Virus record (IMG/VR): IMGVR_UViG_3300036670_000256
Span: 1 to 64,000 of that record
From: a virus
Length of the DNA: 64,000 bases
Strand: one strand, 5' to 3'
The position numbers were made by a program, and so were the translations under genes. Positions 146 through 62,485 of the stretch are shown in pieces. The stretch's first letter is position 1; every line of letters begins with the position of its first letter. Below the pieces are notes generated by a model. The model searched no databases. It was given only the letters and a program-made list of their open reading frames with translations, and was not told the DNA's origin.

Positions 146-215
146 TAACAATGTTTGCTAACTTGTATATATACGCAACAGTATTTATAAAACACTAATT
201 TTTAAACAAAAAACA

Positions 216-755
216 ATGCAAAAATTATATTTCATTAAAAATAAAGAAGGTAAATATGTTTCTCAAGACCAAAAAAAAGAATTGGTAAAAACTGAAAATA
301 TTTTAAACGCAAAAGCTTTTAGCGATTTTTTAAAAGCAGATTTTTTATGTGCTACTTTGGAAGATAAAACTTTTGAGGTAGTTCAACTTGAAGAAGAAGA
401 TTTTATGAATTTGATAGCTGTATTTACAGCCCAGGCAATTATATCTTGTGACGTAAACAGACAATTTTTTGAACAAGTAAATTATAATTTACCTACAATA
501 AGCAAGGCAAATAAAGAACTTAAAAAACGTCTTGATGCTGCGTCTTCTCAATTAAAAAGTATCAACCCATTCTTTAATCAAATTGAAGAAATTGCTGAAG
601 ATGCTTTGTACGATAATCTTTCAAATTATGAATCTGTTATTCGAAGATTGTCAATAATAGGAATGGCATCGTTTGCAGAAATCGATGCTATTTTAGAAGT
701 GTATGAAAAATCTCCAAAAGCAATTTTAGGAATAGTAAAAAAGTATAAGTCTTAA
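216..755 (+). CDS. hypothetical protein (179 aa)
   Basis: ATG after A-rich leader; converges on the gene ending at 757. Confidence 0.8.
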   Translation: MQKLYFIKNKEGKYVSQDQKKELVKTENILNAKAFSDFLKADFLCATLEDKTFEVVQLEEEDFMNLIAVFTAQAIISCDVNRQFFEQVNYNLPTISKANKELKKRLDAASSQLKSINPFFNQIEEIAEDALYDNLSNYESVIRRLSIIGMASFAEIDAILEVYEKSPKAILGIVKKYKS

Positions 756-756
756 T

Positions 757-1032
757 TTATTCTTTAAAACCTTGTCCATGTTGAGATAATAATTCAATTT
801 CTTTTATTTCAAAGTATTGATCTTTACCTAGCTTTGTTTCATAAAGCGCTTTTCTAAAAATTTCTTTTTCACAAATTTTTGCAATTTGCTTTTTTGTAAA
901 TCCTTTTACTAAAATATTTTTTAGCAAAATTTCTCCTATCAATTTTTGATTTACACCGATTTTTTCTTTTTTTAAAAGAACTATGTTAGCTAAATAGATA
1001 GGAACTGTAATATTTATTTTAATTGTTTCCAT
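757..1032 (-). CDS. hypothetical basic protein (probable start METIK at 1032, near-leaderless)
   Basis: ORF track; TATATTTG box 4 nt upstream of the ATG at 1032. Confidence 0.7.
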   Translation of the reverse strand: METIKINITVPIYLANIVLLKKEKIGVNQKLIGEILLKNILVKGFTKKQIAKICEKEIFRKALYETKLGKDQYFEIKEIELLSQHGQGFKE

Positions 1033-1036
1033 GGTA

Positions 1037-1063
1037 CAAATATACAAACATGAAATAATTTCT
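1037..1063 (-). promoter_or_regulatory. Bacteroidota -7 box TATATTTG (1037-1044) with adjacent TGAA-N5-TTCW operator-like site (1051-1063)
   Basis: Matches TAnnTTTG consensus; same motif pair recurs elsewhere. Confidence 0.6.
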
Positions 1064-1066
1064 ATT

Positions 1067-1100
1067 AAAAAAGCCTAACAAATTTAATTGTTAGGCTTTT
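1067..1100 (-). terminator. intrinsic terminator after the virion RNAP gene (potentially bidirectional)
   Basis: AAAAGCCTAACAA-atttaa-TTGTTAGGCTTTT inverted repeat with A/T tracts. Confidence 0.8.
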
Positions 1101-1148
1101 AATTAATTAATCATGGCAGATTAATAGTAGAAAATTCAAAGATACAAT

Positions 1149-12746: not shown

Positions 12747-12757
12747 AATTATTTTTA

Positions 12758-38525: not shown

Positions 38526-38812
38526 AAGATAGTTATGTTATGTTGTTTTTTAAATTCGTTCCAAGTCATTTCTTGCATGAAGTTTGGAAATATTTTTTCG
38601 TGATTACAAGATGTAGGTTCTGCTAAAACATCATTTGGATTACATTTGCAAAAATTACATTTTTTTTGAGCAATACAGCTTTTACAAATATACGCTCTAA
38701 ATCTAATTTGTTCTATTTGTGTTTTTTTAAAAGGTCTGTTAGGATAGTCGTTTTTTACTTTTTCAAAAAAATCAACAAACTCTTTGTCTTCTAAGTTTAA
38801 TATTAAATTCAT
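38522..38812 (-). CDS. small Cys-rich (probable Zn-binding) protein, 96 aa
   Basis: CKSC..CNFCKC..C pattern; translationally coupled to terL and portal. Confidence 0.7.
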   Translation of the reverse strand: MNLILNLEDKEFVDFFEKVKNDYPNRPFKKTQIEQIRFRAYICKSCIAQKKCNFCKCNPNDVLAEPTSCNHEKIFPNFMQEMTWNEFKKQHNITIL

Positions 38813-41049
38813 CGGTCTTGCATTCTTTTTTTCTCTTGCAGAAATATGTTATAAATAGTTGGATCAACTCCTAAAAATTTTACTTCTTTTTCAAATTCGC
38901 TTTGTCTTTTTAGAATATCAGTTTTTTTATTTACTTTGACATCAATATATTCCTTGTACTCTTGAGGGTTTAAATCTCTTTCTGGATGAAATACTTGTAT
39001 TGGAGAATAATCATCATCGTAAACGTTATTCCTTAATTTACCATCTGTATCGACGTAATAACTTCCTAAAGTTTTATCGTAATTATACATGCTTATTTCA
39101 GAAGAACCAACTTCAATATCTTCTGTTATTTCGTCAAAAATATCCATTCTGTGTAATAAGCAAATACCTAAAGTCATAGCTATATCCGTATTGCCATCGC
39201 CAAATTTAATTAGATCTAGAATTACATTTTCAAAATTACATTTGAAAATGTTTTCTTTTACTTCTGATTTCAACATTTTAACTAGAACAGGTTTTACTTG
39301 TCCAGTCATTTTTACACCATCTTTGTTTTTGTGATTAGTAGTTCCGGCTTCTTCAATATCTGGTCTACCTTTAATATATTTATAAGCTTTAACATCGTAG
39401 AAGTATCTTAAAATATGAAATTTTGTATACTCAAATAATATTTCTAAATCCCAATAAACAGCAAATTTTACAGCATTTTCATAAAATACATCATCATCAA
39501 AAGAACCATCGCCGCGCTCGTGTAATACTCCTACCGGTTTATTAAATTCTCTAGTTGGTCCTGAAAAACAACGATACGCCATTACGCAACCAGAAGATAC
39601 TTGGTTTGTGTTTTTCTTGTCGTCGTCAACTTCTTCATCGTAACTATCACAACCGCCAATATCGGGTTTGTAAGATAAGTGTAGAACCGATTGATTAATT
39701 GGTGATGCATCTTTCCAAACAGTTCCGTTTTCTTTGTCTTCTACAAATTTTACTTTTACGTTATGTGCAATTCTAATTTTAGTTTTTTCTTTTGTGTTTT
39801 TACATCGTTGAAGTAATCGAATAACTTCTTCCGTATCTACCCATTCTAATCTTCCTTGCAATACTGGTTCGTCAAATTGACCTAAACTAATTTCTTTTAA
39901 TTGAAAGTTAAGTTTTGCTAAGTCTAAAATTCCACCTTTAGTTTTTAAGAAAACCTCAGCCGGTATCATTGGATAAGATTGAATATGTTTGATGTAAGTA
40001 TCTTTAGCTTTAGAGGCTCTTTTTCTTTCTTCTAAAATATATTTTTTGGCAACTTCGCGATCTGTAACTCCCGTTTCATGGTTAAAAAATGAAATTACTT
40101 TTCCTGTTTTTTCGTCAGGAATTCCATCACCAGGATAATAATAATTTGCAGGAATAAATACTGGTTTCAAATTATAAGCTTCATGGTTATCCCACATTTC
40201 TTTGAAACCTTTTGCACCTTTGTCGATTTCTCCACCGGTTCCGTATACCATTGGAACACCAAACTGATTATGTCCATCGCGAAAACATGGTTCTGTTGCT
40301 TTGTAAGATGCTGTTGAATTTTCAAACAATCCCATTTCCTCAAAATACATTTTGGAATAAGAACCTCCTTCAAAAGCGGAACTATCAGCAAACATGGTTT
40401 TGATTCTCAATAAAGATTGAATACCACATTCTTTAGTTTGCTTGTTAATTAAATTTTTATAGCCTTGTTTTAATTCCTTATCGTTTTTTAAAATATTACC
40501 ATTGTAATAAGCTGGATGCACATTTTCAAGTGAGAATTTTAATTTATCATAAAACTCCTGAGCTTTATCTTCTTTACCAGCACATAATCCAATTAAATTA
40601 TGTTGAAAAAATGTCATTTCATAATTTGCATCCAGTACATTTATTTCTGACAAACCTACACGTCGAGGTTTTGTAATAATCATTCCGTAGCCATGATTTT
40701 CAGCGCCTTCCATTTCTAAAAACAACCAATGATCTAAATCTCTATAAAATGGATTTATTGGCCTTTTTCTTTTTCCGCCTTTTGGCATACCAAGTATTTT
40801 GCAGAAGTTTAAATAATAAAAGTGCTTTCCTGTTATTCTAGGCATTCCTTTTGGTTGATATCCTTTGTAGCAATAGTAATCCATTTCATGCCAAAAATCA
40901 TCGTAAGCTAAAGTACCTGGATTAAGTTCCGTAGATAATTTTTTAATTCTTTCGTTGAATAATATTGGTTGATACAATTTAGGATTCCAGCCTGATTTTT
41001 TGCTTAGTCTAAAAATGTCTGGAATTTCTATGTTAGGGAATTGAGCCAT
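38809..41049 (-). CDS. terL: terminase large subunit, 746 aa
   Basis: Walker A KPRRVGLS, Walker B YFEEMG, coupling motif YGTGG, nuclease GGCDSY; ITGKHFYYLNF. Confidence 0.92.
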   Translation of the reverse strand: MAQFPNIEIPDIFRLSKKSGWNPKLYQPILFNERIKKLSTELNPGTLAYDDFWHEMDYYCYKGYQPKGMPRITGKHFYYLNFCKILGMPKGGKRKRPINPFYRDLDHWLFLEMEGAENHGYGMIITKPRRVGLSEINVLDANYEMTFFQHNLIGLCAGKEDKAQEFYDKLKFSLENVHPAYYNGNILKNDKELKQGYKNLINKQTKECGIQSLLRIKTMFADSSAFEGGSYSKMYFEEMGLFENSTASYKATEPCFRDGHNQFGVPMVYGTGGEIDKGAKGFKEMWDNHEAYNLKPVFIPANYYYPGDGIPDEKTGKVISFFNHETGVTDREVAKKYILEERKRASKAKDTYIKHIQSYPMIPAEVFLKTKGGILDLAKLNFQLKEISLGQFDEPVLQGRLEWVDTEEVIRLLQRCKNTKEKTKIRIAHNVKVKFVEDKENGTVWKDASPINQSVLHLSYKPDIGGCDSYDEEVDDDKKNTNQVSSGCVMAYRCFSGPTREFNKPVGVLHERGDGSFDDDVFYENAVKFAVYWDLEILFEYTKFHILRYFYDVKAYKYIKGRPDIEEAGTTNHKNKDGVKMTGQVKPVLVKMLKSEVKENIFKCNFENVILDLIKFGDGNTDIAMTLGICLLHRMDIFDEITEDIEVGSSEISMYNYDKTLGSYYVDTDGKLRNNVYDDDYSPIQVFHPERDLNPQEYKEYIDVKVNKKTDILKRQSEFEKEVKFLGVDPTIYNIFLQEKKRMQDR

Positions 41050-41060
41050 ATATAAATTTA

Positions 41061-41094
41061 AAAAGAGTATTTACAAATTTATAAATACTCTTTT
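41061..41094. promoter_or_regulatory. 13-bp perfect inverted repeat whose loop is a minus-strand -7 box (terminator and/or terL promoter)
   Basis: AAAAGAGTATTTA-caaattta-TAAATACTCTTTT. Confidence 0.6.
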
Positions 41095-41117
41095 GATTTT
41101 TGTTTTACAAGAAAAAA

Positions 41118-41522
41118 TTATTTTTCTGCAGTAATTTCAGCAAATGCTTTTGCGAAACTGTTAACCTTGTTTTTCAAAGAATTGATTTTTTGGTCTGTCA
41201 ATCTTCTCTTTACCATTTCGCTACTTAATTGTTTTTTTAAAAAAGAATTTCCTTCTTTACTTTTAAGAATGAAATCCACTTCTTTTGAAGTCAAATCTTT
41301 GGCTTCTCCCAATGGAGTAGTTTCTTTTAAAGATTGAATTTCTTTGTCTTTTGATAAAGTAATGTCTTTTAAAGATTGAATTTCTTCGTCTTTTTTGTTG
41401 CAAAATTCCAACATAGTAACGATTTGTTCTTTAGTAAGATTTGTACCATCTTCTGCTCTTTCAATAAAATCTGTTTGCGCCAATTTATCTAATAATTCGG
41501 CTTTTGGAAGTTCAATCATCAT
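41118..41522 (-). CDS. hypothetical coiled-coil protein, 134 aa
   Basis: ORF; contains an internal 14-aa duplication. Confidence 0.75.
   Translation of the reverse strand: MMIELPKAELLDKLAQTDFIERAEDGTNLTKEQIVTMLEFCNKKDEEIQSLKDITLSKDKEIQSLKETTPLGEAKDLTSKEVDFILKSKEGNSFLKKQLSSEMVKRRLTDQKINSLKNKVNSFAKAFAEITAEK
41323..41394. repeat. 30-bp direct repeat, period 42 nt (KDEEIQSLK / KDKEIQSLK)
   Basis: tcttttaaagattgaatttcttYgtctttt at 41323 and 41365. Confidence 0.8.
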
Positions 41523-41538
41523 AATGTAATTATTTTAG

Positions 41539-42138
41539 TTAAAAATTGTTTAATCCTAATTTATTAGGGTTTTCTAAGTCTTCTCCGTGGTTAACAAATT
41601 TACTATTTTTTTTGCTTAGTATTTCATTTTCAATTCTTGACAATTCGTAACCACTATTTGTAATCGCTTTTTCAACAATTTTTTTCTTTTCAAATTTACT
41701 ATTGAATTTCTGTATAGCTTCTTCGTGTTTGTTTATTTGATTTGATAATCTAGATATTTCAGTATCGTCTTCAACTTGATTTGCTTCTGATATCTTTTTT
41801 AATAATCTGGTTTTAATTTCTGCATTAATTCGTTCCAGCTGCAGATCATTATTAAATTGCAATTCTAAATATTTTTCTATTGCATTTTGAACTAAAGGTT
41901 CTGTTTCTTTTAAAGCACTTCGCTTTGTGTAAACTTCTTCTACAGCTCTAGCAAACCTATCTGCTCTATCGTAGTAAGCAAATATTGATAAATAATCGCA
42001 ACTCAAAGCTACAACAGTCATTGCATTAATTCCTTTTTTTGAGAAAAGTTCTCGAAATGCTTTTATAGCTTTCCAACCGGAATTAGATGGAGAATCATCA
42101 ATCAAACCAGTTTCTTGATTTATCTGAATTAAATACAT
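41539..42138 (-). CDS. helical protein, terminase small subunit candidate, 199 aa
   Basis: DYLSIFAY..AIEKYLELQ pattern and coiled coil, upstream of terL; assignment mainly by position. Confidence 0.45.
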   Translation of the reverse strand: MYLIQINQETGLIDDSPSNSGWKAIKAFRELFSKKGINAMTVVALSCDYLSIFAYYDRADRFARAVEEVYTKRSALKETEPLVQNAIEKYLELQFNNDLQLERINAEIKTRLLKKISEANQVEDDTEISRLSNQINKHEEAIQKFNSKFEKKKIVEKAITNSGYELSRIENEILSKKNSKFVNHGEDLENPNKLGLNNF

Positions 42139-42139
42139 T

Positions 42140-42490
42140 TTAAAGTCTTTGAGGTTCGTTTAGGTAAGACAATTTTTTAGATTGGTATTCGTCTAAAAGA
42201 TTTTTAAATTGTCTGTACGTAAACCATAAGTTATATTGTTCCGATATAATTTCGTGCTTTTCTTCTTTACCTAAATTTGGGTAAATGTCAGTTAGTAAAT
42301 CGTAAAGGAATCCAACCTTGTAATTTTTTTTATGCTTTTTAGCATCTATTAAAATTTTATTGTAATCGTTTGGAATCTTAAAAACACATAGTCCGTTTTT
42401 TAAATTTTCGTATAAATATTTTTTATGCTCCAAAGAATCTGGCGCACTAGGTAGCTTTATAGTACATTCGAATTTTTCTATTAAAATCAT
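42140..42490 (-). CDS. hypothetical protein (start MILIE at 42490)
   Basis: ATG follows the -7 box at 42508-42515. Confidence 0.65.
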   Translation of the reverse strand: MILIEKFECTIKLPSAPDSLEHKKYLYENLKNGLCVFKIPNDYNKILIDAKKHKKNYKVGFLYDLLTDIYPNLGKEEKHEIISEQYNLWFTYRQFKNLLDEYQSKKLSYLNEPQRL

Positions 42491-42507
42491 TGCTTTGTAA
42501 TTTTTAA

Positions 42508-42530
42508 CAAAGATAGTAGAAAAAATTTCA
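42508..42530 (-). promoter_or_regulatory. -7 box TATCTTTG with operator-like TGAAATTTTTTCT 2 nt upstream
   Basis: Direct sequence match. Confidence 0.6.
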
Positions 42531-42533
42531 ACT

Positions 42534-42560
42534 AAAAAAAGCACCCTTTTGAGGTGCTTT
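42534..42560 (-). terminator. intrinsic terminator
   Basis: AAAGCACC-cttttga-GGTGCTTT, T7 tail on the minus strand. Confidence 0.7.
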
Positions 42561-42624
42561 AATTAGGATAAAATGTAGAAAAAAATTGTAAAGTAAAAAA
42601 TAGTAGTCAGGCAAATATATACTT

Positions 42625-42867
42625 TTATTCTACTTCTTCATAATTTACTGTTGAATTTTTTACTAGATTTTCTGATATCCAACCGCCTTTTGATTTTGAT
42701 TTAAATATTTCGCCAAACTTTGTTTTTGAAACAGGAAAGTAATCATAAGTTTTTTTAGCAAATTCTATTCGCATTACTCCCGTTTTGTTTTCTTCATCAT
42801 ATTCCCAACCAACTTTGTTTACGTTAGATGAATGTACGTTATACATTTTTCCTTTAAATTCACTCAT
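42625..42867 (-). CDS. KTSC domain protein
   Basis: VHSSNVNKVGW..IEF..YDY..V..SKSKG pattern. Confidence 0.8.
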   Translation of the reverse strand: MSEFKGKMYNVHSSNVNKVGWEYDEENKTGVMRIEFAKKTYDYFPVSKTKFGEIFKSKSKGGWISENLVKNSTVNYEEVE

Positions 42868-43973
42868 GATTTTTCTGTTTTAGTTTCTATAAAAATTGGC
42901 ATTGACTTCATCTGTGATAATAATAATTTAATATCTTTTGTTGAAAAATCAAAATTCTTAGGTAATTGATCTATATCTAAAGTTATAACATTACCAACCA
43001 CAATTCCTTTTTTGGTAATCTGCAGCTGTTCTAATTTTAAATTAAATCTAGAGAAGTTTTTATTTCCAGTTCCTCCAAATTCTTTAGCAATTTTTAATAC
43101 ATCTACTTCCGGTTTTGTAGTGTATAAATTTATGGACCAACAACATGTTTTTGAATTGTAGAAATACATAAACACAAGGTCGTGTATGCTTTCAAAAAAG
43201 AAATTTTCGTAAGCTATAAAGTCTAGCTTATTTGAATTAATAGCTATTGCTTTTAAATCATTAAAATCAAATTCTACTGAACTTGATTTTATCAATAAAT
43301 CGTATTGCTTTTTTTGGTATTCTAACACATAACTACCAATACTTTTTATACTCTCAATATCGATGTTTTTTTCCCAATCATCTATATCAACTAATATATT
43401 ATGTATTTGTTCTGGAGTAGATTTACTACTCATAAACCAGTACATAGGCATTACTTCTTTTACCCAATCTTTATCCTTAATTATTTTGGTTTCTTCCGTA
43501 TGTCTTAAGGTAGAATATTGTCCAATACAACTTACAATATCTCTAGCATTTTTGCCAAGCTTCTGAGCGTAAAAATTAATCGCTATCTCACAAGATGATA
43601 GCGTTTCGGAATAATAATAAACCATATTCATTTTGGTAACTTCAAAGCATTTAATATAACTATTCAAGCTTTTTTCTCTCACTTCATATTCATTCAACTC
43701 ACAATATGATATTAAATCTTCAAAGTTTCCTATAAAATTATCTATCCAAATAAATTCTAAAGAACCTAATCCTAAAGTTTTCATTCTTTCCATTGGTAAA
43801 GAGGTTCCTACCATTACTGTCACTTTGCCTTTGTACTTCCTGGTATCTAAATCTTCTTCAAAACATAAAGGTTTTAGTTTTAAAGTATCCCCATATTGTT
43901 TTTGATGCGAATACAATACTGCTGCAGCTGTTATACTGTCTAAAATTTCTAAGTTGTAAATACAAAAATCCAT
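42864..43973 (-). CDS. DHH/DHHA1 phosphoesterase-fold protein with degenerate catalytic motifs, 369 aa
   Basis: DHH scaffold spacing kept, but DxDG reads ILDS, DHH reads DNF and GGGH reads GGTGN. Confidence 0.75.
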   Translation of the reverse strand: MDFCIYNLEILDSITAAAVLYSHQKQYGDTLKLKPLCFEEDLDTRKYKGKVTVMVGTSLPMERMKTLGLGSLEFIWIDNFIGNFEDLISYCELNEYEVREKSLNSYIKCFEVTKMNMVYYYSETLSSCEIAINFYAQKLGKNARDIVSCIGQYSTLRHTEETKIIKDKDWVKEVMPMYWFMSSKSTPEQIHNILVDIDDWEKNIDIESIKSIGSYVLEYQKKQYDLLIKSSSVEFDFNDLKAIAINSNKLDFIAYENFFFESIHDLVFMYFYNSKTCCWSINLYTTKPEVDVLKIAKEFGGTGNKNFSRFNLKLEQLQITKKGIVVGNVITLDIDQLPKNFDFSTKDIKLLLSQMKSMPIFIETKTEKS

Positions 43974-44195
43974 TTATTGCTTTTTATTAGTTTTGGAATC
44001 AATTATTTCTTTTATTATTAAACATTCTAAATATAATTCTTCTTCTTCATAACTAGCAAGTAAAAATTTTAAATTGATAATATCTCCCTTTGATAATTGA
44101 TCTTTAAACGAATCGTATTCTGTAAATGTTTCTGTAAATCTTTCTGCAGATAAAGTTTCTTGAAAAATTAAATCTATTTTTTCTAAAATTGCCAT
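43974..44195 (-). CDS. small acidic protein with UVR-like C-terminal helix (start MAILE at 44195)
   Basis: EEEELYLECLIIKEIID; -7 box upstream. Confidence 0.65.
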   Translation of the reverse strand: MAILEKIDLIFQETLSAERFTETFTEYDSFKDQLSKGDIINLKFLLASYEEEELYLECLIIKEIIDSKTNKKQ

Positions 44196-44210
44196 GTTAA
44201 TTGTTTTTAA

Positions 44211-44247
44211 CAAAAATACATGAAATAACTTCAACTATGCAAATTTA
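44211..44247 (-). promoter_or_regulatory. two -7 boxes (44211-44218, 44240-44247) flanking operator-like TGAAGTTATTTCA (44221-44233)
   Basis: Direct sequence match. Confidence 0.6.
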
Positions 44248-44308
44248 CCAAAAAAAATAGGAACTATTTCTAATTCCTAATTTTCCGAATAATTATTAAC
44301 CAAAATAT

Positions 44309-44599
44309 TTATCTGCATTCAAACCAATCATCCGATAACATGTCTTCCGGATTTGGTATCCAACCTTCAGTAGTTACGCCATTGCAATTACACCGAAAAT
44401 GTGGAGTTCTAGTTATTGTATTAAAATCACCTCTCTGAAATAAGTTTTCATCAATGTAGTCTAGTTTGCTTCCATTCGAAATATCAGTAGAATAATTTCC
44501 CTGAATCAAACTAATGATTTTATTGTGAGCATTTATTCTAGCCACTTCTTTGTTTTGTTTTAATAACTCTAAAGCAACACTAAAATTGAAATTTCTCAT
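44309..44599 (-). CDS. DUF2829 / Tad2-like protein (anti-Thoeris sponge family), 96 aa
   Basis: FSVALELLKQNKEVAR N-terminus and GWIPNPEDMLSDDW C-terminus. Confidence 0.8.
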   Translation of the reverse strand: MRNFNFSVALELLKQNKEVARINAHNKIISLIQGNYSTDISNGSKLDYIDENLFQRGDFNTITRTPHFRCNCNGVTTEGWIPNPEDMLSDDWFECR

Positions 44600-44613
44600 T
44601 TTATTTGTTTTTA

Positions 44614-44655
44614 CAAAGATAAAAAAAAAGCGAGAATATTAATTTCTCGCTTTTA
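44614..44655 (-). terminator. terminator after groES followed directly by a -7 box (44614-44621)
   Basis: AAAAGCGAGAA-tattaat-TTCTCGCTTTT; TATCTTTG on the minus strand. Confidence 0.75.
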
Positions 44656-44658
44656 ATT

Positions 44659-44976
44659 TTAAACTTCTTCTTCTCGTACTAATTCCAAAATTTCATCTTC
44701 TCGTAAAGAACATAAAGCTTCGGTTAGTCCTTCATTATTAAAATTTTGAGAACCAAACACCGTTCCCGCGTGAGGTATGTGAGAAATTAAATCTCCTATT
44801 TTTACCCAATCAATACTTGTTCCTACCGCCAAAACTGTACCTCTTGATAACAATTTCTTCTCGTCTTTCTTTTCGATAATTCCAGATTTGTTTTCTTCAT
44901 ACAAACCCGAATCTTTTTCAACGTAAACTCTCAAAATAATTTTATTTGGCGCGCATCCTACTGTCTTCTTTTTCAT
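44659..44976 (-). CDS. groES: co-chaperonin GroES-like protein
   Basis: NKIILRV..KSGII..GTVLAVG..VKIGD..LREDEIL pattern. Confidence 0.85.
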   Translation of the reverse strand: MKKKTVGCAPNKIILRVYVEKDSGLYEENKSGIIEKKDEKKLLSRGTVLAVGTSIDWVKIGDLISHIPHAGTVFGSQNFNNEGLTEALCSLREDEILELVREEEV

Positions 44977-44992
44977 AATCTAATATTAAATG

Positions 44993-45217
44993 TTATACAA
45001 ATAAACTCTTAACTGCATACATGCAGCTTGTTTCTAATTGGGTTTGTGCTAATGATATTTCTCTACCATTTTGACCGTTGTTCATAGTTTCTAATTTGTC
45101 AAACAAATTAGCATAGTCTTGTTTCAATTCTTCAATCTCTGGCTTTGCAGATGGATTGAAATTTCTTTGAACTCTTAATTCTCCTTTCGATACTGGTCTT
45201 TCGATTTTTCCACTCAT
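44993..45217 (-). CDS. Acb2/Tad1-like helical hairpin protein (cyclic-nucleotide sponge family), 74 aa
   Basis: GELRV..FNPS..IEELK..A.L.D..REISLAQTQLETSCMYAVKS pattern. Confidence 0.7.
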   Translation of the reverse strand: MSGKIERPVSKGELRVQRNFNPSAKPEIEELKQDYANLFDKLETMNNGQNGREISLAQTQLETSCMYAVKSLFV

Positions 45218-45220
45218 AAT

Positions 45221-46081
45221 TTATAGTTTATTTAAAAATTTATACAATTCTAAATTCCATTTTGCATCCGATAACGCATGATGCTCGTTTGATTTTTTTG
45301 GAAATAAAATATTATTTTTCTTTATTGATTCTACCGTTACTTTTGGCATCCCTTCCTTAAGATTTGTAGAATCATTTATCTTCATAATTTTCTGATCTAA
45401 CATCTGCTTTAAATCTTTACAATACATCGGAAAACCATTTGGCAAATTTATCATTTTTCCAAACAACCAACAAAACACTACCCAATCATAATCACCAAAA
45501 TATGCGTAGAAATCTATCTCTCCCTTGAAATTAGCAATTATCTTTCTAGTGGTTTCTATCTGATGCTTATTCTCATCATAACCCACAATTGCAAATTCAT
45601 AAACAAATTCCTTTACCAATTCTGAAATCTGCTTGTTGGTCTTTCCATACCGTTCAATAAACGAACTCAAACTATGAATCGTAAATAAATCATCATGCAA
45701 TCCAGAATCTAATTCTTTCTTGAATTCCTCAGCCTCTCTATTACTCAACATAATCGTATCGCAATCTGAAAATAAAAATAACTGCTTCCAAATTGGATAT
45801 AATACATTATCGCGAATCCAATAAATCTTTAATGGAGGACAACCAGCTCGAATTTTCTCAGGACTTAATTCCTCTAAATCAAATCTATTCCAAGCTTCTT
45901 TTAAATTGAAATCTTTTGATACCTCATAAAACTCTCGGCCATCCTCAGAAACAATACCAATCGATATTAAATCAATTGTAGCCTTTGGTTTACCAATAAT
46001 CCAATTGCCTAAACGACCTTTCAATATTAAACTACGCTCCGGAACTCCTTCTAAAAATTCCGTGTCTAAAAAATATTTCAT
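45221..46081 (-). CDS. DEDDh 3'-5' exonuclease (Rv2179c/DUF5051-like), 286 aa
   Basis: YFLDTEF, LISIGIV, DYDW, HHALSDAKW motifs. Confidence 0.85.
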   Translation of the reverse strand: MKYFLDTEFLEGVPERSLILKGRLGNWIIGKPKATIDLISIGIVSEDGREFYEVSKDFNLKEAWNRFDLEELSPEKIRAGCPPLKIYWIRDNVLYPIWKQLFLFSDCDTIMLSNREAEEFKKELDSGLHDDLFTIHSLSSFIERYGKTNKQISELVKEFVYEFAIVGYDENKHQIETTRKIIANFKGEIDFYAYFGDYDWVVFCWLFGKMINLPNGFPMYCKDLKQMLDQKIMKINDSTNLKEGMPKVTVESIKKNNILFPKKSNEHHALSDAKWNLELYKFLNKL

Positions 46082-46082
46082 A

Positions 46083-46436
46083 TTATTCCTCTTTTTTAAT
46101 TCCTATTGGAAAATCATTAAACGCATTCTTACCATAATTATCCCCACCAGTTCCAAATATTATCGGAATATTTTTAATTCCTAAATCCCTTTTAGGAAAA
46201 GCAGCTTCCCAAGCTTTCTTAAAATCATCACGATTTAATTCCATCGGAATTTTTAACAAAGGATTTAAACCACTAAACGAACTACCATTAACCCTTTTTT
46301 CCATATCTCTATTCATTTTTTCCGTTAACGCATCTTCATCCGTATGCTTAAACCATAAGCTTTTAAGATCGCTAAATCCCTTAACGTTTTTAAAACAATC
46401 AGAGTCTTCACCACAAGCACTAAATAAATTATCCAT
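46083..46436 (-). CDS. small protein with a TerL motif III-like C-terminal segment, 117 aa
   Basis: IPIIFGTGGD versus TerL VPMVYGTGGE; -7 box 4 nt upstream of the ATG. Confidence 0.7.
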   Translation of the reverse strand: MDNLFSACGEDSDCFKNVKGFSDLKSLWFKHTDEDALTEKMNRDMEKRVNGSSFSGLNPLLKIPMELNRDDFKKAWEAAFPKRDLGIKNIPIIFGTGGDNYGKNAFNDFPIGIKKEE

Positions 46437-46440
46437 GATA

Positions 46441-46463
46441 CAAATATAGATGAAGTTATTTCA
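46441..46463 (-). promoter_or_regulatory. -7 box TATATTTG (46441-46448) and palindromic operator TGAAATAACTTCA (46451-46463)
   Basis: ATGAA-N5-TTCAT palindrome; first promoter of the minus-strand block. Confidence 0.65.
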
Positions 46464-46560
46464 TGTACCAATTTTTGAACAAAAAAAATTCTCACACGAA
46501 GTTATTGCAACAACCAAAAAAAAATAAAAAAAATATTTGCGCGGGTGTATCCACTAAACA

Positions 46561-53946: not shown

Positions 53947-56493
53947 ATGAAAAAAGTATTATACAATCCGTTTCAATTATTAATCAACTTTGACGTAATT
54001 GAGAAAGATTTATTTTTACTTGGAGATTTGCATAACATTAAATCGATGTTACCAAAATTATTTGAAACTCAACAAGAAGACGTTGCAGCTGCAGAGAATC
54101 GTTTTAAAGAAGGTAAAGGTTATCTTTTTACAAATGGAACTGGCACTGGCAAAACATACGTCGGTCTTGGTATTGCATTTAGGTTTTACACTAACAACAA
54201 AAAGAACATTATTATTGTTGTTCCTACAGATGAAAAATCTAAAGATTGGGTTGAAGATGGTTTGAACATTGGTTTGAGTATATACAAACTTCAAGGAATA
54301 CACGATGCTGGACATGAAATAACTGTTACTACTTATGCTAACTTTTATCAGAATGAAGCGATTAATAAGGTGAAATGGGATTTAGTTATTTATGACGAAT
54401 CACATTACTTAGGTCAAAATGCAAATGGCGTTGAAAATAGTTATTTGCAAAAACATAAGAACATTGCCAATCTTCCTTCTGCAGCAAGGTCTAAAGCGTT
54501 TGAACATAACGGAGTTTACGAAGATTATTATTGTGAAGATAGTGGTCTTGTAAAACAAAAGGTAAACAAAGAATTGTACGACAAAGTTTACAACGAATAC
54601 ATTGAAAGTACTAAAGTAGTTTTTCTTTCTGCTACGCCATTCGCGTACCATAAATCAATTAAGTATGCAGATGGAGCATTGTTTGAAATCAATGAAAAAA
54701 TAATTCCGGATAAAGACACTTTTACATCATACAATGATGGTGGTGCTTGGGAAAATTTCATGATGGATAACTTTGGTTACAGAATGAAGTACAATAAACT
54801 TACCATACCAGAAACAGGTGTGGACCAAAATTTATTAGAAAGAAGTTTCTTTGAAAGTTTTAAAGACAGAGGAGTAATGTCAACTAGACAATTAGAACTT
54901 GAGCAAGATTACTCAAGAGAATTTATAATAGTTGATTCTGAAATTGGAAAGTTTATTGATGATGGGTTAAATTTATTTCACGATACTGATTTTTCTAAAA
55001 GATATCCTAAGTTAAGTGAGTTTCATAAGAGAAAACTTAATTATTTGTTTATTAATCAATTGCTAGAATGTATTAAAGCAAAAGATATAAATGAAAGAAT
55101 TAAGCAACATCTTTATTTGAATAGAAAAGTTGTAGTGTTTCATAATTATAATAACGCAAACATTACACATCCTTTTCAATTTCAAGTAAGAGAATTAATT
55201 TCTACTGATGAAGAATTTCATAAACATTCTGATGCTTTAAGAATTGAGATTTTAAAGTTTAAAGAAGAATATTCTCATTATTGGAATTTAGATTTGTCTG
55301 GTTTGTCTAACATTAGAAAAACTATCAAACAATGTTTTCCTGAAGCTAGAGAGTTTAACGGAACTGTCAGCAAAAAACTTAGAAGTAAATTTATAAAAGA
55401 ATTTAATTCTGATTTTTCTATGATTGATATTATTTTAGTTCAAGTAAAAGCTGGACAAGAAGGTATTTCTTTACACGATAAAACAGGAATGCACCAAAGA
55501 GTTTTAATTAATTTAGGACTTCCTACAGCTCCGACTCAAGCTATTCAAACAGAAGGTAGAATTTACAGACAAGGTTTAAAAAGCAATGCAATTTACGAGT
55601 ATGCCACAGTGCAAACTAGTACAGAAAGAATTGCTTTTGCTACAAAAATTGCTGAACGTTCTAAGACTGCTGAAAATTTGGCTATGGGTAATTTGGCTAG
55701 AGATTTAGAAACAGCTTTTAAAGAAGGCTATGCAAATGCCAATGAAAACGAGCCAAACTTAGAACAAGGTGTTGGAGGTAAAGAATCTGATCGTTTCTTA
55801 TTTACAATTAATGAGTATGAAAAAACAAAAACATTTTATTGGAAAAGAAGAAAACGTAATTCTAAAACTAAAGCAAGAGAAGGTGTTGATTATTTTGCTA
55901 CTCCTGAACCTTTAGGTTTTAAAATGGTAGAATGGTTAAAGCTTGAACCTAACCATAGATGCTTAGAACCATCTGCAGGTCATGGTGCTATTGCTAGATT
56001 TTTACCAAGCGATTGTGTTAATGATTTTATAGAACCTAGTTTTGAACTTAGTTCACAAATTGCTATTAATGCAACGGGAACTGTTATTAATAGTACTTTT
56101 GAAGATCATCACATAATTAATAAATATGAAGCAATTGTGATGAATCCTCCTTTTGGTTCTGGTGGTAGACTTGCTATGGAACATATTGCAAAAGCGTGCA
56201 AACATTTATCTACAGCACAAGGTGCTAAAGTAATTGCAATAATTCCTAACGGTTCTTCAATGCAAAAAAGACTTGATGAATTTTTTGCAGACGAAAAGAA
56301 TAGAATGTTTCATTTAACTGGACAGATATACTTACCATCTGTTTTATTTGAAAGAGCCGGAACAAACGTTTCATGTAGAATTATTAGAATAGAAACAGCT
56401 AGAAGTTTACGTTCTGAATACAATGAAATTGAACTTTACGATTGTGCAACAATCGATGAATTCTTTGATAGAATAGAACATTTAGATTTTTAA
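53947..56493 (+). CDS. SF2 helicase (strawberry-notch-like) fused to N6-adenine methyltransferase, DarB-like, 848 aa
   Basis: GTGTGKT, DESH, SATP, QTEGRIYR; MTase FATP, LEPSAGHG, MNPPF. Confidence 0.85.
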   Translation: MKKVLYNPFQLLINFDVIEKDLFLLGDLHNIKSMLPKLFETQQEDVAAAENRFKEGKGYLFTNGTGTGKTYVGLGIAFRFYTNNKKNIIIVVPTDEKSKDWVEDGLNIGLSIYKLQGIHDAGHEITVTTYANFYQNEAINKVKWDLVIYDESHYLGQNANGVENSYLQKHKNIANLPSAARSKAFEHNGVYEDYYCEDSGLVKQKVNKELYDKVYNEYIESTKVVFLSATPFAYHKSIKYADGALFEINEKIIPDKDTFTSYNDGGAWENFMMDNFGYRMKYNKLTIPETGVDQNLLERSFFESFKDRGVMSTRQLELEQDYSREFIIVDSEIGKFIDDGLNLFHDTDFSKRYPKLSEFHKRKLNYLFINQLLECIKAKDINERIKQHLYLNRKVVVFHNYNNANITHPFQFQVRELISTDEEFHKHSDALRIEILKFKEEYSHYWNLDLSGLSNIRKTIKQCFPEAREFNGTVSKKLRSKFIKEFNSDFSMIDIILVQVKAGQEGISLHDKTGMHQRVLINLGLPTAPTQAIQTEGRIYRQGLKSNAIYEYATVQTSTERIAFATKIAERSKTAENLAMGNLARDLETAFKEGYANANENEPNLEQGVGGKESDRFLFTINEYEKTKTFYWKRRKRNSKTKAREGVDYFATPEPLGFKMVEWLKLEPNHRCLEPSAGHGAIARFLPSDCVNDFIEPSFELSSQIAINATGTVINSTFEDHHIINKYEAIVMNPPFGSGGRLAMEHIAKACKHLSTAQGAKVIAIIPNGSSMQKRLDEFFADEKNRMFHLTGQIYLPSVLFERAGTNVSCRIIRIETARSLRSEYNEIELYDCATIDEFFDRIEHLDF

Positions 56494-58674: not shown

Positions 58675-60099
58675 ATGAATTATGATTTTAAGCAAAGAGA
58701 TAAAATAGAAAATTCAATTTTAGGTTGTATTATATCAGATATTAGAAATCCCGTTTTTGAGGGAAATCCAAAAGCTCTTTTCGAAAAGCATTATTTTTTA
58801 GAACCCACTTACTTTAGAACTAAATTTAATCAAGATTTGTTTGGTACATTCCTTACTTTATGGGATAAACAGATTGAGATTGATTTGACTACAGTATGTA
58901 GTTATTGTCCTCCAGAGTACAAGATTGGTAATTCGTTTAATAGTTTTCAAATGAACTGCATTACTTTAACTCAGAACATAAGTTCCGCTTATCATATTGA
59001 AAATTACATAATGCTTTTAAAGCAATATGTTTTGATGGATTTTTGGAATAAAAAATCTTCTGAAATACTTGATAACTATTGGGATGAGCGCGACGTAATT
59101 GATGTGGGTAAAAACATTGTTGATGCATATACTATGTTGTATTCTGAATTTAATAAAATAGGTAGCAATAGTACGGGTTTACAAAGTAAAAAAGAACAGC
59201 TTTTGTCTAAGCATCAGAAGGTTCAAAACGGAGAAGTGATTACGGTTCCTATACCAATTTTTGATATACAAATAGCGACTGGAGGTTGGCAACCATCAGA
59301 ACTTACTATCATTGGCGCAAGACCGGGTATGGGTAAAACAACTGTTGCTTTAATTTTAGCAAAATATGCTTCGTTTGATTATAAAGTTCCTGGTATTTTT
59401 ATTTCATTAGAAATGAGTAAATACAGTTTGATGAATAGAATCATATCAGAACAAACCGGATTAGATTACAATGACATTAAGAATTTGAAGATTACCAAAG
59501 AAGAATTAAATTTAGTTATTCAATGGTATGATTATTTTGAGAACACTTCAGATTTAAAGATTTTTGATGTCAATGATTGTAGAACTCTTACAGATATAGT
59601 TTCTAAAATCGATTTATTGAAACCTAAATTTGTTTTTATAGATTACTTACAATTGATTAAACTCGACAAAACAATTAATAAAAATGGGAACAGAGAACAA
59701 GAAGTTGGTGAAATTTCAAGAAACTTAAAACTTGCTGCACTTACTTACGATATTCCTATTATAGCTTTGTCGCAGCTTTCTAGAAAATGTGAAGATAGAC
59801 CAGGTAAAAAACCGATGCTTTCTGATTTAAGAGAATCTGGTAGTTTAGAACAAGATGCTGATAATGTTTCTTTCTTTTTTAGAGAGGCGTATTATAAAGA
59901 AAAAGAAGGCCAAACAGTACCTAGTATAGAAAAAGGTAATTTGCTTTGGATTTGGGCTAAGGGTAGAGAAACAGTTACAGACAATTATGAATGTAATGTG
60001 AATTTTACCAAGTACACAATTACTAACGGGTTTTTGTATCATGGAATTGACGATCAAGATGAAATATTAAATCTTCCGCCACCTCCTCCAAAAACATAA
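58675..60099 (+). CDS. dnaB: replicative DNA helicase DnaB
   Basis: GARPGMGKT, SLEM, IDYLQL, LSQLSR, DLRESGSLEQDAD. Confidence 0.95.
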   Translation: MNYDFKQRDKIENSILGCIISDIRNPVFEGNPKALFEKHYFLEPTYFRTKFNQDLFGTFLTLWDKQIEIDLTTVCSYCPPEYKIGNSFNSFQMNCITLTQNISSAYHIENYIMLLKQYVLMDFWNKKSSEILDNYWDERDVIDVGKNIVDAYTMLYSEFNKIGSNSTGLQSKKEQLLSKHQKVQNGEVITVPIPIFDIQIATGGWQPSELTIIGARPGMGKTTVALILAKYASFDYKVPGIFISLEMSKYSLMNRIISEQTGLDYNDIKNLKITKEELNLVIQWYDYFENTSDLKIFDVNDCRTLTDIVSKIDLLKPKFVFIDYLQLIKLDKTINKNGNREQEVGEISRNLKLAALTYDIPIIALSQLSRKCEDRPGKKPMLSDLRESGSLEQDADNVSFFFREAYYKEKEGQTVPSIEKGNLLWIWAKGRETVTDNYECNVNFTKYTITNGFLYHGIDDQDEILNLPPPPPKT

Positions 60100-60117
60100 C
60101 CACAAAAAAAAATAAAC

Positions 60118-60159
60118 AGCGCACTTGAAATTTTTTCAGGTGCGTTTTGTTTATATTTG
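60118..60159 (+). terminator. hairpin terminator after dnaB containing a TGAA-N5-TTCA site, followed by -7 box TATATTTG (60152-60159)
   Basis: GCGCACTTGAAA-ttt-TTTCAGGTGCGT-TTTG. Confidence 0.65.
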
Positions 60160-60190
60160 TACCATAATTACAAACATTTAAAATTAAAAT

Positions 60191-60472
60191 ATGGATACAA
60201 GTGATATTATAAAAGAATGTCATATTCTTTTAAAAAAAGAAAACCTTTCAGACAATCTGAAAGACAGCAAAAAAATGTTCTACATATTTCGTGATGTTAT
60301 TACTTCAAACATTGCTAATGGTAAAAAAGTAGAAATTTTAAATTTGGGAATTTTTACAAGCATTTACCGATTGTGCATTGATCCTTCAGATTTACAAAAA
60401 GAAAAAGTTCAAAGATGGATAATTAAGTTTTCATCTTCGGTTTCTTTAAGAAGAAGAATCAATGGCAAATAA
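60191..60472 (+). CDS. HU/IHF-like DNA-binding protein, 93 aa
   Basis: NGKKVEILNLGIF..IKFSSSVSLRRRIN. Confidence 0.75.
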   Translation: MDTSDIIKECHILLKKENLSDNLKDSKKMFYIFRDVITSNIANGKKVEILNLGIFTSIYRLCIDPSDLQKEKVQRWIIKFSSSVSLRRRINGK

Positions 60473-60815
60473 AGTAACTAGTAGGAATGTTGGAATAATT
60501 AGAAAAAAGGTTCTTTCAATAGCAGGTAAAAATATTTCTAAAGAGAAATACCTTGCGTTAATTGAAGACCAAGTTTTTAACGACTCAGATTTTAAAAGAC
60601 AAATTTTAGAAACTTCTATAAAGCTAAAATTAGATTATGATTTAGTAGACAATGTTATTAAAGATTTCATTTATACTGCATGTGATTTATTAGTAAAAGT
60701 CAAAAAGATTTCTAGAAGAATTAGTATAATCGGTTTTTTTTATATCGATATACTTGAAGTAAAATACAATGTAAATTCAGTTTACAATAAGAAAAATCAT
60801 AGTAAAAACAATTAA
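60462..60815 (+). CDS. second HU/IHF-like protein, 117 aa
   Basis: Helix..VIKDF..RISIIGFF pattern, divergent. Confidence 0.45.
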   Translation: MANKVTSRNVGIIRKKVLSIAGKNISKEKYLALIEDQVFNDSDFKRQILETSIKLKLDYDLVDNVIKDFIYTACDLLVKVKKISRRISIIGFFYIDILEVKYNVNSVYNKKNHSKNN

Positions 60816-60825
60816 ATTTTTAAAA

Positions 60826-61929
60826 ATGGAATCAAACAATTTCACAGCGCCTCAAGGGCAAATGCAAAGTTCTTTTACAGCTCCCGAAAGTAATGGAGGA
60901 AAAGAAAAACGTTCGGATATACAATTGTTACCTCCTGGTCCAAACTCAGGTGTAATATTTTGTGTTGTAGATTTAGGAACTCACATGGAATCTTTCGGAA
61001 ATCAAGAACCTAAAAAGACCAGAAAAATTAAAATTGGTTACGAACATCCTCAATTAAAACAATTGTTTTATGAAGAAGATACAGAAATTCGAAGTAGTTC
61101 TACATGGACAGAAGGTACTTATGCAGTAAACGAAAAGTCTAATTTAAGAAAACTTATTGAAGCTGTTTTAGGCAAAAAGATTTCTGATCAAGAAGCTTAC
61201 AATTTTGATTTAAGTAAATTAATTGGAAGTAAAGTTTTGGTAAACGTTTCACACGTTCAAGGTAAAAAAGATCCTAGTAAATCTTATGAAAAGGTTTTAG
61301 GTGTTATGCACCATGGACAAATGCCATTGCCAGCAAATTTTAATCCAATGTCGGACCAACAATTGTTTTCAATAGACAAGAATGGCGATAATTTTACAAC
61401 TCAAAATTTTGCTACTTTGTTGCCTTTTCTTAAAAAGAAAATAATGGCTTCAGAAGAAGCAATCGCACATGCTAGACGTGGAGGAAAATTTGCTCATATT
61501 GATAATAGTGCTAGTGCAACAAATGCACAACAGACTAATAATTATAATAACCAGCAACAAAGTCAACCGCAAAATTCTGGTCAAAACAACGGACAAAACT
61601 TTCCTCCTCAACAAGGTAATGGAATTAGAAAATTTGTATTAACAGATAATTCTTATACTTTGGAATCGTGGAAATCTGCGGGTTGGAATGAAGAAACTTT
61701 AGTTCAAAATGGCAAAGGACATTTTGTAGAACCTACTCCGCCAAGCGCTCCGCAAGGACCACCAAGTCCTCAAAACTTACCTCAAGGACCACCAAGTCCA
61801 CAAGGTCCACCTCAGATGCAACAACAGCAGAGTAATAACGTTGCTCAGCCTAATCAAAATTCTGGTTTCCAATCAAATAGTGGTTTTAATTCAAATTCAA
61901 ATGAAGAAGATGATGATATGCCTTTCTAA
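60826..61929 (+). CDS. single-stranded DNA-binding protein (phage type) with Pro/Gln linker and DDDMPF tail
   Basis: Acidic EEDDDMPF C-terminus; VVDLGTH N-domain. Confidence 0.75.
   Translation: MESNNFTAPQGQMQSSFTAPESNGGKEKRSDIQLLPPGPNSGVIFCVVDLGTHMESFGNQEPKKTRKIKIGYEHPQLKQLFYEEDTEIRSSSTWTEGTYAVNEKSNLRKLIEAVLGKKISDQEAYNFDLSKLIGSKVLVNVSHVQGKKDPSKSYEKVLGVMHHGQMPLPANFNPMSDQQLFSIDKNGDNFTTQNFATLLPFLKKKIMASEEAIAHARRGGKFAHIDNSASATNAQQTNNYNNQQQSQPQNSGQNNGQNFPPQQGNGIRKFVLTDNSYTLESWKSAGWNEETLVQNGKGHFVEPTPPSAPQGPPSPQNLPQGPPSPQGPPQMQQQQSNNVAQPNQNSGFQSNSGFNSNSNEEDDDMPF
61730..61815 (+). repeat. PQGPPS coding repeats in the SSB linker
   Basis: caaggaccaccaagtcc twice plus a degenerate third unit. Confidence 0.7.
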
Positions 61930-62331
61930 ATGAAAGATTATTTGATGAAATTTCAAGAAGATGGTACAGTTACTTTCTTTGATGAAAAAGACAGAGTGTC
62001 CTACGGGACACTCTTATCTTCAATAAAGAATTCAAGCGATAGATTTATTATGACAATTTCAGTTTATCAAAAAGAGGGAATTTCTCAAAAACAGAAAAAG
62101 TTATTTAAAGTCTTGATTAATTTAATCGCTAGCGAATCTGGTAACGATGTTGATACAATAGAGGAAACTTTATTAAATTCTTTTAGAAAAGGAATCCGCA
62201 GTTTGGAAGACTTTAACCATAAAGATTTTAGTGATTTTTTAGAATGGTCAGTTTTATTCTGCCAAGAATTTTTTGATGTCAATATTCAAATAAATGATAA
62301 TTATAATTTTGAAGTAAAAAAAATTAAATAA
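61930..62331 (+). CDS. NinB/Orf-like recombination protein, 133 aa
   Basis: SQKQKKLF..IASESG..DFSDFLE..F pattern. Confidence 0.55.
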   Translation: MKDYLMKFQEDGTVTFFDEKDRVSYGTLLSSIKNSSDRFIMTISVYQKEGISQKQKKLFKVLINLIASESGNDVDTIEETLLNSFRKGIRSLEDFNHKDFSDFLEWSVLFCQEFFDVNIQINDNYNFEVKKIK

Positions 62332-62485
62332 ATGTATATATACACAGTAATAATTACTTTTTGTAAAATAGGTGCTATATGGTCAAGAAACATAATAGTT
62401 AGAAAAAGTTTTCAATCAGGTTCTAGCATCTTTTTGATGTTAGCATTAATTGAAAGTAAAAACAATAAAAACACAACAGAACGAT

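Follow-up and report, generated by a model that had tools for sequence, protein, structure and literature searches.

A phage DHH/DHHA1-fold protein retained by selection after loss of most of its catalytic residues, near a Tad2-like gene

Why would a phage preserve, at full length, a phosphodiesterase-like protein in which most of the catalytic residues have been replaced? The question is raised by a DHH-like gene (protein P0001) in IMGVR_UViG_3300036670_000256, a complete virus record of 73,637 bp with direct terminal repeats, of which one stretch of 64 kb was analysed (hereafter the window; GC content 27-36%). We lean, with modest confidence, towards the view that this gene encodes a no longer catalytic orthologue of the NrnB-like DHH/DHHA1 phosphodiesterases of phages, that purifying selection keeps it within a counter-defence unit, and that its product binds rather than cuts. 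The gene under study is the following.

42864..43973, minus strand: DHH-like gene (P0001), encoding a predicted DHH/DHHA1-fold pseudoenzyme of 369 amino acids (aa), with 7/9 catalytic or ligand positions replaced

Motifs, fold and evolution of the DHH-like protein

The open reading frame (ORF) begins with ATG. It encodes 369 aa with zero internal stops, as had been stated in an earlier note made on this DNA from the sequence alone. At a stop probability of 0.085 per codon in such AT-rich DNA, 369 open codons would arise by chance with P ~5e-15, and a chance ORF was rejected; a mis-called frame was rejected as well, since the N-terminus agrees with the start common to the family (MDFCIY...). 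The motif readings of the earlier note were all correct once the protein had been aligned with its homologues P0002 and P0003. In this three-way alignment motif I, which is YHSRDLDG in both relatives, reads YNLEILDS in the window protein; VMIDVS of motif II is found as VMVGTS, IDHH of motif III as IDNF, GQYDTW of motif IV as GQYSTL, and the DHHA1 signature GGGGHK..ACGF as GGTGNK..FSRF. Nine canonical positions were scored (H7, D10, D12, D56, D78, H79, H80, D154 and H304) and the window protein keeps D12 and D78 only; H7, D10, D56, H79, H80, D154 and H304 are all replaced, with N7, I10, G56, N79, F80 and S154 standing at the ligand positions of motifs I-IV. The substrate-binding GGGH motif is degraded to GGTGN and the following xxAxGF to NFSRF. 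Motifs I-IV and GGGH, which together mark active DHH phosphoesterases of the NrnA/NrnB/GdpP type, are thus all degenerate in the window protein. In the accessible text of the respective sources, GGGH is listed with motifs I-IV among the inclusion criteria for NrnB (PMC12709177), and in NrnA it forms the substrate site together with an adjacent basic strand (PMC5593865).

Altogether, 18 changes fall at family columns that are at least 90% invariant, namely H7N, D10I, G13S, S16A, Y38F, D56G, H79N, H80F, L150I, D154S, Q178Y, S252F, F255Y, S282N, G302T, H304N, A307F and G309R. Among these, we infer from conservation only that the positions of Y38F, Q178Y, S252F and S282N lie near the cleft. Within the DHHA1 part the protein keeps W279, Y284, K287, D291, K297 and F310.

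Domain libraries pass over the protein: it matches 0 families in Pfam at E <= 1 and 0 families in NCBIfam, it stays below the curated cut-offs of both PF01368 (DHH) and PF02272 (DHHA1), and PF01368 has no match anywhere in the phage genome. A phmmer search of PDB with the single window sequence gave marginal matches only. The DHH layout, which the earlier note had regarded as kept, was recovered by PHROG 4771 ('DHH phosphoesterase'; residues 2-318, E 9.3e-10) and by the family profile (E 2.3e-78), and the similarity extends across both domains, which places the protein in the DHH/DHHA1 superfamily. It was recovered again in an AlphaFold2 model built on a 140-row alignment, with a predicted local distance difference test (pLDDT) score of 91.5 and a predicted template modelling (pTM) score of 0.86; this model supersedes an earlier one from a 3-row alignment (pLDDT 62.6). 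Foldseek searches with the model against PDB returned 92 matches at E <= 0.001, and every top row listed belongs to the DHH superfamily (a mycobacterial NrnA homologue, Borrelia DhhP, TM1595, Rv2837c, PggH, PAP phosphatase, GdpP, RecJ and RecJ-Cdc45, 7bih). The comparison with NrnA and GdpP that the earlier note had suggested gave a DHH/DHHA1 fold, with both the NrnA homologue and GdpP among the top matches. In BFVD, Foldseek found 46 viral matches, among them DHH phosphohydrolases from giant viruses and from jumbo phages (PhiEaH1, PaBG and AR9), and for an independent model from the ESM Atlas (pTM 0.71) the nearest clusters are mostly viral DHH/DHHA1 proteins. The AlphaFold2 model, the Foldseek matches and the Atlas model agree on a two-domain DHH plus DHHA1 alpha/beta architecture, and on these predicted structures the fold assignment is safe.

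The two-domain architecture is common to the window protein and to the bacterial stand-alone enzymes NrnA, Rv2837c/CnpB, the catalytic domain of GdpP, Borrelia DhhP, TM1595 and PggH, which head the matches both of Foldseek and of a sequence-profile search. These are, however, Mn-dependent hydrolases with intact motifs I-IV and GGGH, and they share 7-15% identity with the window protein, where the motifs are gone. The viral NrnB-like DHH/DHHA1 phosphohydrolases (PHROG 4771; P0002, P0003 and a gene on the metagenome contig L003, described below) share with it the fold, the length class and the MDFCIY... start; the window protein differs from them in lacking seven ligands and the G-rich DHHA1 signature, and in a branch 3-6 times longer. 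No experimental characterisation of a member of this viral family was found in the literature searched.

Only two near relatives were recovered from a set of 5.8 billion proteins, P0002 (385 aa, 50% identity over 98% of the length) and P0003 (484 aa, 47%). Both keep every motif and both score on the Pfam DHH and DHHA1 models, with DHHA1 above its cut-off in P0002 only and DHH below it in both; the JGI label of the sister cluster is 'oligoribonuclease NrnB/cAMP/cGMP phosphodiesterase'. A profile search of 1.84 billion representatives yielded 4,008 relatives at E <= 0.001. The family alignment was assembled from the best 150 of these 4,008 matches, cluster members and later matches, and it holds 171 rows besides the window protein, some of which are near-identical members of one cluster and not all independent. 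All nine canonical positions are present in 161/171 rows; nine further rows show gaps only (fragments) and the remaining one (P0088) carries D56E. At the 72 family columns conserved at 70% or more, the window protein keeps 33 residues, compared with 65 and 62 in the sisters. When the 5.8-billion-protein set was searched with the profile, only 19 proteins came back, none of them a further degenerate member, and a tblastn search of 50,697 phage records gave zero matches for the window protein and two weak, unannotated ones for the active orthologue.

Searching the whole 73.6-kb phage genome with the family profile and Pfam DHH did not reveal a second DHH gene. A paralogue backed by an active copy in the same genome was rejected on this ground, and since the gene is the sole DHH gene of the genome, activity would have been lost without paralogue backup.

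Some archaeal RecJ homologues also lack catalytic residues. Cdc45 and the archaeal RecJ-Cdc45 proteins likewise retain a DHH/RecJ-type fold without catalysis, and Cdc45 is described, in the accessible part of the source, as a catalytically inactive RecJ-fold scaffold in the replisome (PMC4359367). The window protein differs from both in that nothing relates it specifically to them or places it in a replisome, and in its length (369 aa vs ~440-470 for the archaeal RecJ chains listed). The NCBIfam RecJ models are far below their cut-offs even for the sister proteins, and the DHH-like gene sits in the anti-defence/packaging arm of the genome, away from the DnaB or Dda helicases at 58675-63922. 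In a maximum-likelihood (ML) tree the window protein groups with P0002 and P0003, with support 100/100, inside the viral NrnB-like clade. As judged from these comparisons, the loss of catalysis is recent, internal to that clade and independent of Cdc45.

Is the protein decaying, or is it kept? In the careful ML tree its end branch measures 1.02, vs 0.18 and 0.37 for the sisters (0.93, 0.16 and 0.30 in a quick tree), so that it has evolved ~3-6 times faster than they have. Neutral drift was simulated by substitutions on the window gene under the base composition of the phage, with no insertions or deletions (indels) and with 300 runs per level. The frame remained open in 5/300 runs at 10% amino-acid divergence, in 1/300 at 20% and in 0/300 at 30-50%; the actual protein differs from the sister consensus at 100/245 columns, or about 41% of the columns at which the sisters agree. 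The 100 replacements have a mean BLOSUM62 score of +0.16 vs -0.47 +/- 0.14 under stop-free neutral drift, and the observed mean was attained in 0/300 simulations. They are also unevenly spread: the change rate in sister-agreed columns is 46-62% in residues 1-60, 181-210, 241-270 and 301-330, and 19-37% elsewhere up to residue 360.

Natural variants point the same way. The window DNA, or a close variant of it, occurs in four metagenome runs from salt lakes, each from a different study; the source may be among these runs. Two more natural variants were found, the full-length P0154, present on contigs of up to 73,182 bp, and the partial P0155; V216L, V292L and T320N are their only differences from the window protein, and all the degenerate motifs are kept. 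Over 38800-46500 a contig of run X2 shows 89 differences and no gap. By rough expectation, the regional divergence of 1.1-1.2% would put ~12 differences into the DHH-like gene, compared with the 2 amino-acid changes of P0154. None of the runs examined showed an indel within the gene, and the frame is kept in strains from at least three studies, without indels where the gene is covered. Neutral decay cannot account for the open frame, the hydrophobic core positions or the conservative replacements, and the window protein is retained as a folded protein by selection. The proposal of the earlier note that the ligands were lost in a coordinated way while the ORF stayed under selection is thus supported by the simulated frames (0/300 open at 30% divergence or more), the conservative replacements, the variants and the motif-intact relatives. 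The same note had allowed that the idea would fall if close homologues kept DHH while this copy showed relaxed selection; the homologues do keep DHH and the rate is raised 3-6 times, but selection is clearly present.

A four-gene unit and its counterpart in a second phage

The DHH-like gene lies among small genes that are found in the same order on L003, a 19.8-kb metagenome contig. The features of this island are as follows.

44626..44654, minus strand: terminator-like hairpin, upstream boundary of the unit; 11-bp stem and T-run, upstream of the Tad2-like gene; equivalent in L003 at 503-530
44309..44599, minus strand: Tad2-like (Thoeris anti-defence 2-like) protein, first gene of the unit; PF11195 E 1.9e-9, above cut-off; SptTad2 (8wjd) E 2.9e-5; homologue in L003
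43974..44234, minus strand: small ORF of no known family; 86 aa from TTG, or 73 aa from ATG at 44195; homologue in L003 with 38% identity
42625..42867, minus strand: KTSC-domain protein of 80 aa, last gene of the unit; PF13619 E 5e-6, above cut-off; homologue in L003 after the DHH gene
42538..42560, minus strand: terminator-like hairpin, downstream boundary of the unit; 9-bp stem and T-run, past the KTSC gene; equivalent in L003 at 2864-2893
44993..45217, minus strand: Acb2/Tad1 hairpin domain protein of 74 aa, outside the unit; PF24729 E 4.8e-9, above cut-off; anti-defence candidate
45221..46081, minus strand: Rv2179c-like 3'-5' exoribonuclease of 286 aa; PF16473 E 3.3e-6; PHROG 2259 E 4.8e-42; Rv2179c structures E 1e-11

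Two strong hairpins on the coding strand enclose exactly four genes (Tad2-like, small ORF, DHH-like and KTSC), in a region that contains 6 terminator-like hairpins vs 1.9 +/- 1.2 in shuffled sequence. Inside the unit the stop codon of the small ORF abuts the start codon of the DHH-like gene, whose own stop overlaps the KTSC start (ATGA), and the four genes are predicted to be co-transcribed. No promoter is claimed, as matches to a sigma-70-type promoter are at chance level (31 vs 30.6 expected). A complex prediction for the DHH-like, KTSC and small ORF proteins, run without controls, scored 0.00, below the mark, which speaks neither for nor against a complex, and PADLOC reported nothing relevant for ten island proteins.

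On L003 the order is Tad2-like gene, small ORF, DHH gene, KTSC gene, three small genes, large terminase (TerL), small ORF and portal, which is the order of the window. The same four genes are bracketed by hairpins in both phages, at 503-2893 (+) in L003 and at 42538-44654 (-) in the window, between genomes whose TerL proteins are 60% identical. Identities between the two loci are 54% for the portal protein, 48% for the KTSC protein and for a 199-aa protein, 43% for a 134-aa protein, 38% for the small ORF, 37% for the Tad2-like protein and 36% for the DHH protein. Every motif is intact in the L003 DHH gene (1186-2496). With the gene order shared and the L003 motifs intact, the window gene is therefore the positional orthologue of an apparently active enzyme. 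The earlier note had placed a Tad2-like gene two genes away, and it is indeed the second gene upstream (44309-44599); the closeness to anti-defence genes that the note had pointed to turns out to be stronger than described, as the DHH-like and the Tad2-like gene lie between the same two terminator-like hairpins, in a unit that recurs in a second phage.

The association has its limits within the family. A 208-kb jumbo-phage contig from IMG/VR (L001) carries, at 6001-6909 (+), a 302-aa motif-intact member of the same DHH family, whose neighbours include ORFs of 365 aa (upstream) and 151 aa (some genes further downstream). This DHH gene has neither a Tad2-like nor a KTSC gene next to it, and the four-gene unit is therefore not universal for the DHH family.

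Two minor observations concern the edges of the unit. The listed GTG start of the 134-aa ORF (42140-42544, minus strand) falls within the terminator-like hairpin 42560-42538; translation probably begins at an ATG further downstream, and the homologue in L003 has 121 aa. At a depth of 2.9, run X4 shows the deletion of one base at 44250, within the stretch that separates the small ORF from the Tad2-like gene, which an assembly error could explain.

Readings of the protein's role

If the gene is a dead orthologue kept as a binder, as we somewhat favour, its history may be reconstructed as follows. The ancestral enzyme would have removed a small nucleotide, either nanoRNA or an immune signal, within a counter-defence unit; the window lineage would then have given up hydrolysis, and the protein would now work by binding. 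Its inter-domain cleft, now without the acidic and His ligands and with F, Y, I and R as new residues, would be remodelled for a newly bound ligand or a protein partner. Phage DHH phosphodiesterases have been predicted, in the accessible part of the source, to counter the signals of CBASS and of type III CRISPR systems (PMC7824862).

Several points weigh against this reading. The counter-defence role of the active orthologues is itself predicted, the terminators are consensus matches and not mapped transcript ends, and no RNA run is present among the listed sequencing runs that hold the window DNA. The AlphaFold2 model leans on an alignment dominated by active relatives, and the remodelling of the cleft is read from sequence columns only. 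The gain of aromatic residues at the changed invariant positions (6/18 vs 8/82, p 0.018) is weak, two of the six being Y/F swaps. With the metal ligands D12 and D78 retained, a weak single-metal site is formally possible, and the degenerate state is confined to one lineage (three sequences at 99% identity), with no recurrence and no deep conservation. In addition, Tajima relative-rate tests against four outgroups were significant in 8/8 cases (p 2e-9 to 1.2e-3), a result that fits relaxed constraint too, and 7/8 were still significant after the 18 invariant columns had been removed; in the control tests of P0002 vs P0003, 2/3 were non-significant (p 0.11 and 0.32) and the third was marginal (p 0.02). 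Because the tests stay significant without the invariant columns, constraint has been relaxed or redirected across the whole protein, beyond the active site.

What might such a protein bind? One answer, which was the suggestion of the earlier note and which we regard as doubtful, is that the dead enzyme acts as a sponge. It would sequester an immune nucleotide uncut, complementing the nearby Tad2-like and Acb2/Tad1-like proteins. Candidate ligands would be cyclic di- or trinucleotides, glycocyclic ADP-ribose (gcADPR), cyclic oligoadenylate (cOA), SAM-AMP or linear pNpN. The gene is predicted to be co-transcribed with the Tad2-like gene, its ancestor comes from a family acting on small nucleotides, and it is a pseudoenzyme kept by selection; F, Y and R, residue types suited to base stacking and phosphate contacts, were gained at changed invariant positions, though this is a weak indication. 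With Tad1, Tad2 and Acb2 it shares genomic company (the Tad2-like gene inside the unit, the Acb2/Tad1-hairpin gene three genes off) and, as proposed, a non-enzymatic mode. Its fold, however, is unrelated to theirs and without similarity to known sponge folds, and it has 369 aa vs 74-96 aa for the neighbouring sponge-like proteins; in Pfam, PHROG and PDB no match to Tad1, Tad2 or Acb2 was found for the 369-aa protein, those domains residing in separate neighbour genes. Moreover, the DHHA1 substrate-binding signature has been destroyed along with catalysis (G302T, H304N, A307F, G309R), as have other invariant positions assumed to lie near the cleft, and GGGH helps to bind substrate in NrnA according to the accessible text of the source (PMC5593865). 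Given the changes of GGGH to GTGN, A307F and G309R, a nucleotide ligand, if there is one, would therefore be bound in a new, non-ancestral way, and the sponge reading is weakened.

Alternatively, the fold may have been kept as a scaffold or decoy that binds the KTSC protein, the small ORF product or a host factor, an idea we entertain with equal caution. The gene abuts one small neighbour at its start codon and overlaps the other at its stop codon, and the trio is still together in L003; RecJ-Cdc45 structures are among the fold matches, and Cdc45 offers a precedent for an inactive RecJ-type fold, as far as the accessible part of the source describes it (PMC4359367). The same neighbours, however, lie beside the active L003 orthologue, so that any partnership predates the loss of catalysis and leaves that loss unexplained.

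It is improbable, in our view, that the gene is simply on its way out, its function having become dispensable (replaced, for example, by the Rv2179c-like exoribonuclease) and catalysis having been lost so recently that the ORF is still unbroken. The terminal branch of 3-6 times the sister length, the significant relative-rate tests, the restriction of the loss to one lineage and the retention of 33/72 conserved columns would all suit such a course. Against it stand the divergence of ~41% at sister-agreed columns, when 0/300 simulated frames were open at 30% or more, and the replacements, which are more conservative than neutral ones (the observed mean was reached in 0/300 simulations); change is concentrated in some segments with others spared, and the frame is preserved, free of indels over the covered part of the gene, in strains from three or more studies. 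That the protein is still an enzyme, using D12, D78 and new N, S and T residues for single-metal or metal-independent chemistry on a new substrate, is very improbable: two acidic ligands are retained and the cleft seems remodelled rather than randomly degraded, but the canonical His residues are all gone together with 3/5 Asp, none of the 171 rows tolerates more than one conservative change at the canonical positions, and in the one tested case that the accessible text of PMC10600005 describes, mutation of the DHH motif of NrN abolished function in vivo.

Returning to the dead orthologue kept as a binder, a more specific and quite tentative form of it is an enzyme-to-binder transition, in which a former signal-destroying phosphodiesterase beside a Tad2-type sponge would have become a non-hydrolytic trap or decoy with a re-lined cleft. 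If this were true, the protein would stand for a class of anti-defence binder that is new, large (369 aa), descended from the DHH/DHHA1 fold and without kinship to known sponges; by extension, the intact unit of Tad2-like gene, small ORF, DHH and KTSC genes would be a previously unrecognised counter-defence module, with viral DHH enzymes acting on immune signals. More generally, were the dead copy to bind a host protein or a signal, the anti-defence binders of phages would gain a new fold, and the case would show how a binder arises from an enzyme; should it have no function, it would be an unusually well-preserved relic. In either case the window gene is a natural, selected loss-of-catalysis allele for which active orthologues at 36-50% identity provide matched controls.

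These considerations extend to the active enzymes. Viral DHH phosphohydrolases are common, as the 4,008 profile matches at E <= 0.001 and the mostly viral Atlas clusters indicate, and in the literature searched their role against nucleotide-based immunity is predicted but never shown, as far as the accessible part of PMC7824862 goes. The conserved unit between its terminator-like hairpins brings a DHH gene together with one of the Tad2 anti-Thoeris type, a link that points to a function of these active enzymes. In the literature searched we found no phage DHH protein described as catalytically dead; the supplementary tables of PMC7824862 and PMC12709177, which might list degenerate members, lie outside that search.

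The phage genome and the remaining neighbours

The large terminase of the phage (38809-41049, minus strand) shows 21-25% identity to terminases of crAss-like phages (cr273_1, Azobacteroides phage ProJPt-Bp1 and others), and because of this similarity we read the phage as a divergent crAss-like phage; a Bacteroidota host is presumed from that placement only. The genome is laid out as a long minus-strand arm with structural and packaging genes and a plus-strand arm with replication genes.

The 74-aa Acb2/Tad1-hairpin gene lies directly downstream of the Rv2179c-like exoribonuclease gene, and its product has no solved relative by sequence. The Rv2179c-like protein, a candidate nucleotide-signal or RNA nuclease judging from its matches, has 286 aa vs 168 aa in the solved Rv2179c chains and matches them in two stretches; it therefore appears to carry a large insertion. 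At CorA-type III CRISPR loci, the accessible text of PMC10600005 describes a DHH-family nuclease (NrN) or a DEDD-family nuclease adjoining corA. That the window island carries one gene of each family, DHH and DEDD, as found beside corA, is no more than a suggestive parallel.

Upstream of the unit, between the Tad2-like and the Acb2/Tad1-hairpin genes, lies a weak GroES-like gene (44659-44976, minus strand; Pfam Cpn10 E 0.007, PHROG 3188 E 1.8e-5). On L003 the C-terminal end of a Cpn60/GroEL gene (1-480, plus strand) is found just upstream of the Tad2-like gene, where the window has the GroES-like gene; a search of the whole phage genome for Cpn60 gave nothing. Further away, the structural arm contains a single giant ORF of 3,879 aa (1149-12788, minus strand), whose neighbours are ORFs of 1,521, 941 and 658 aa. 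Finally, an 848-aa protein encoded at 53947-56493 (plus strand) is similar to portions of PHROG families of very large size (phrog_10691, with a profile length of 3,925, at E 7e-287) and combines helicase-like with DNA-methyltransferase-like segments.

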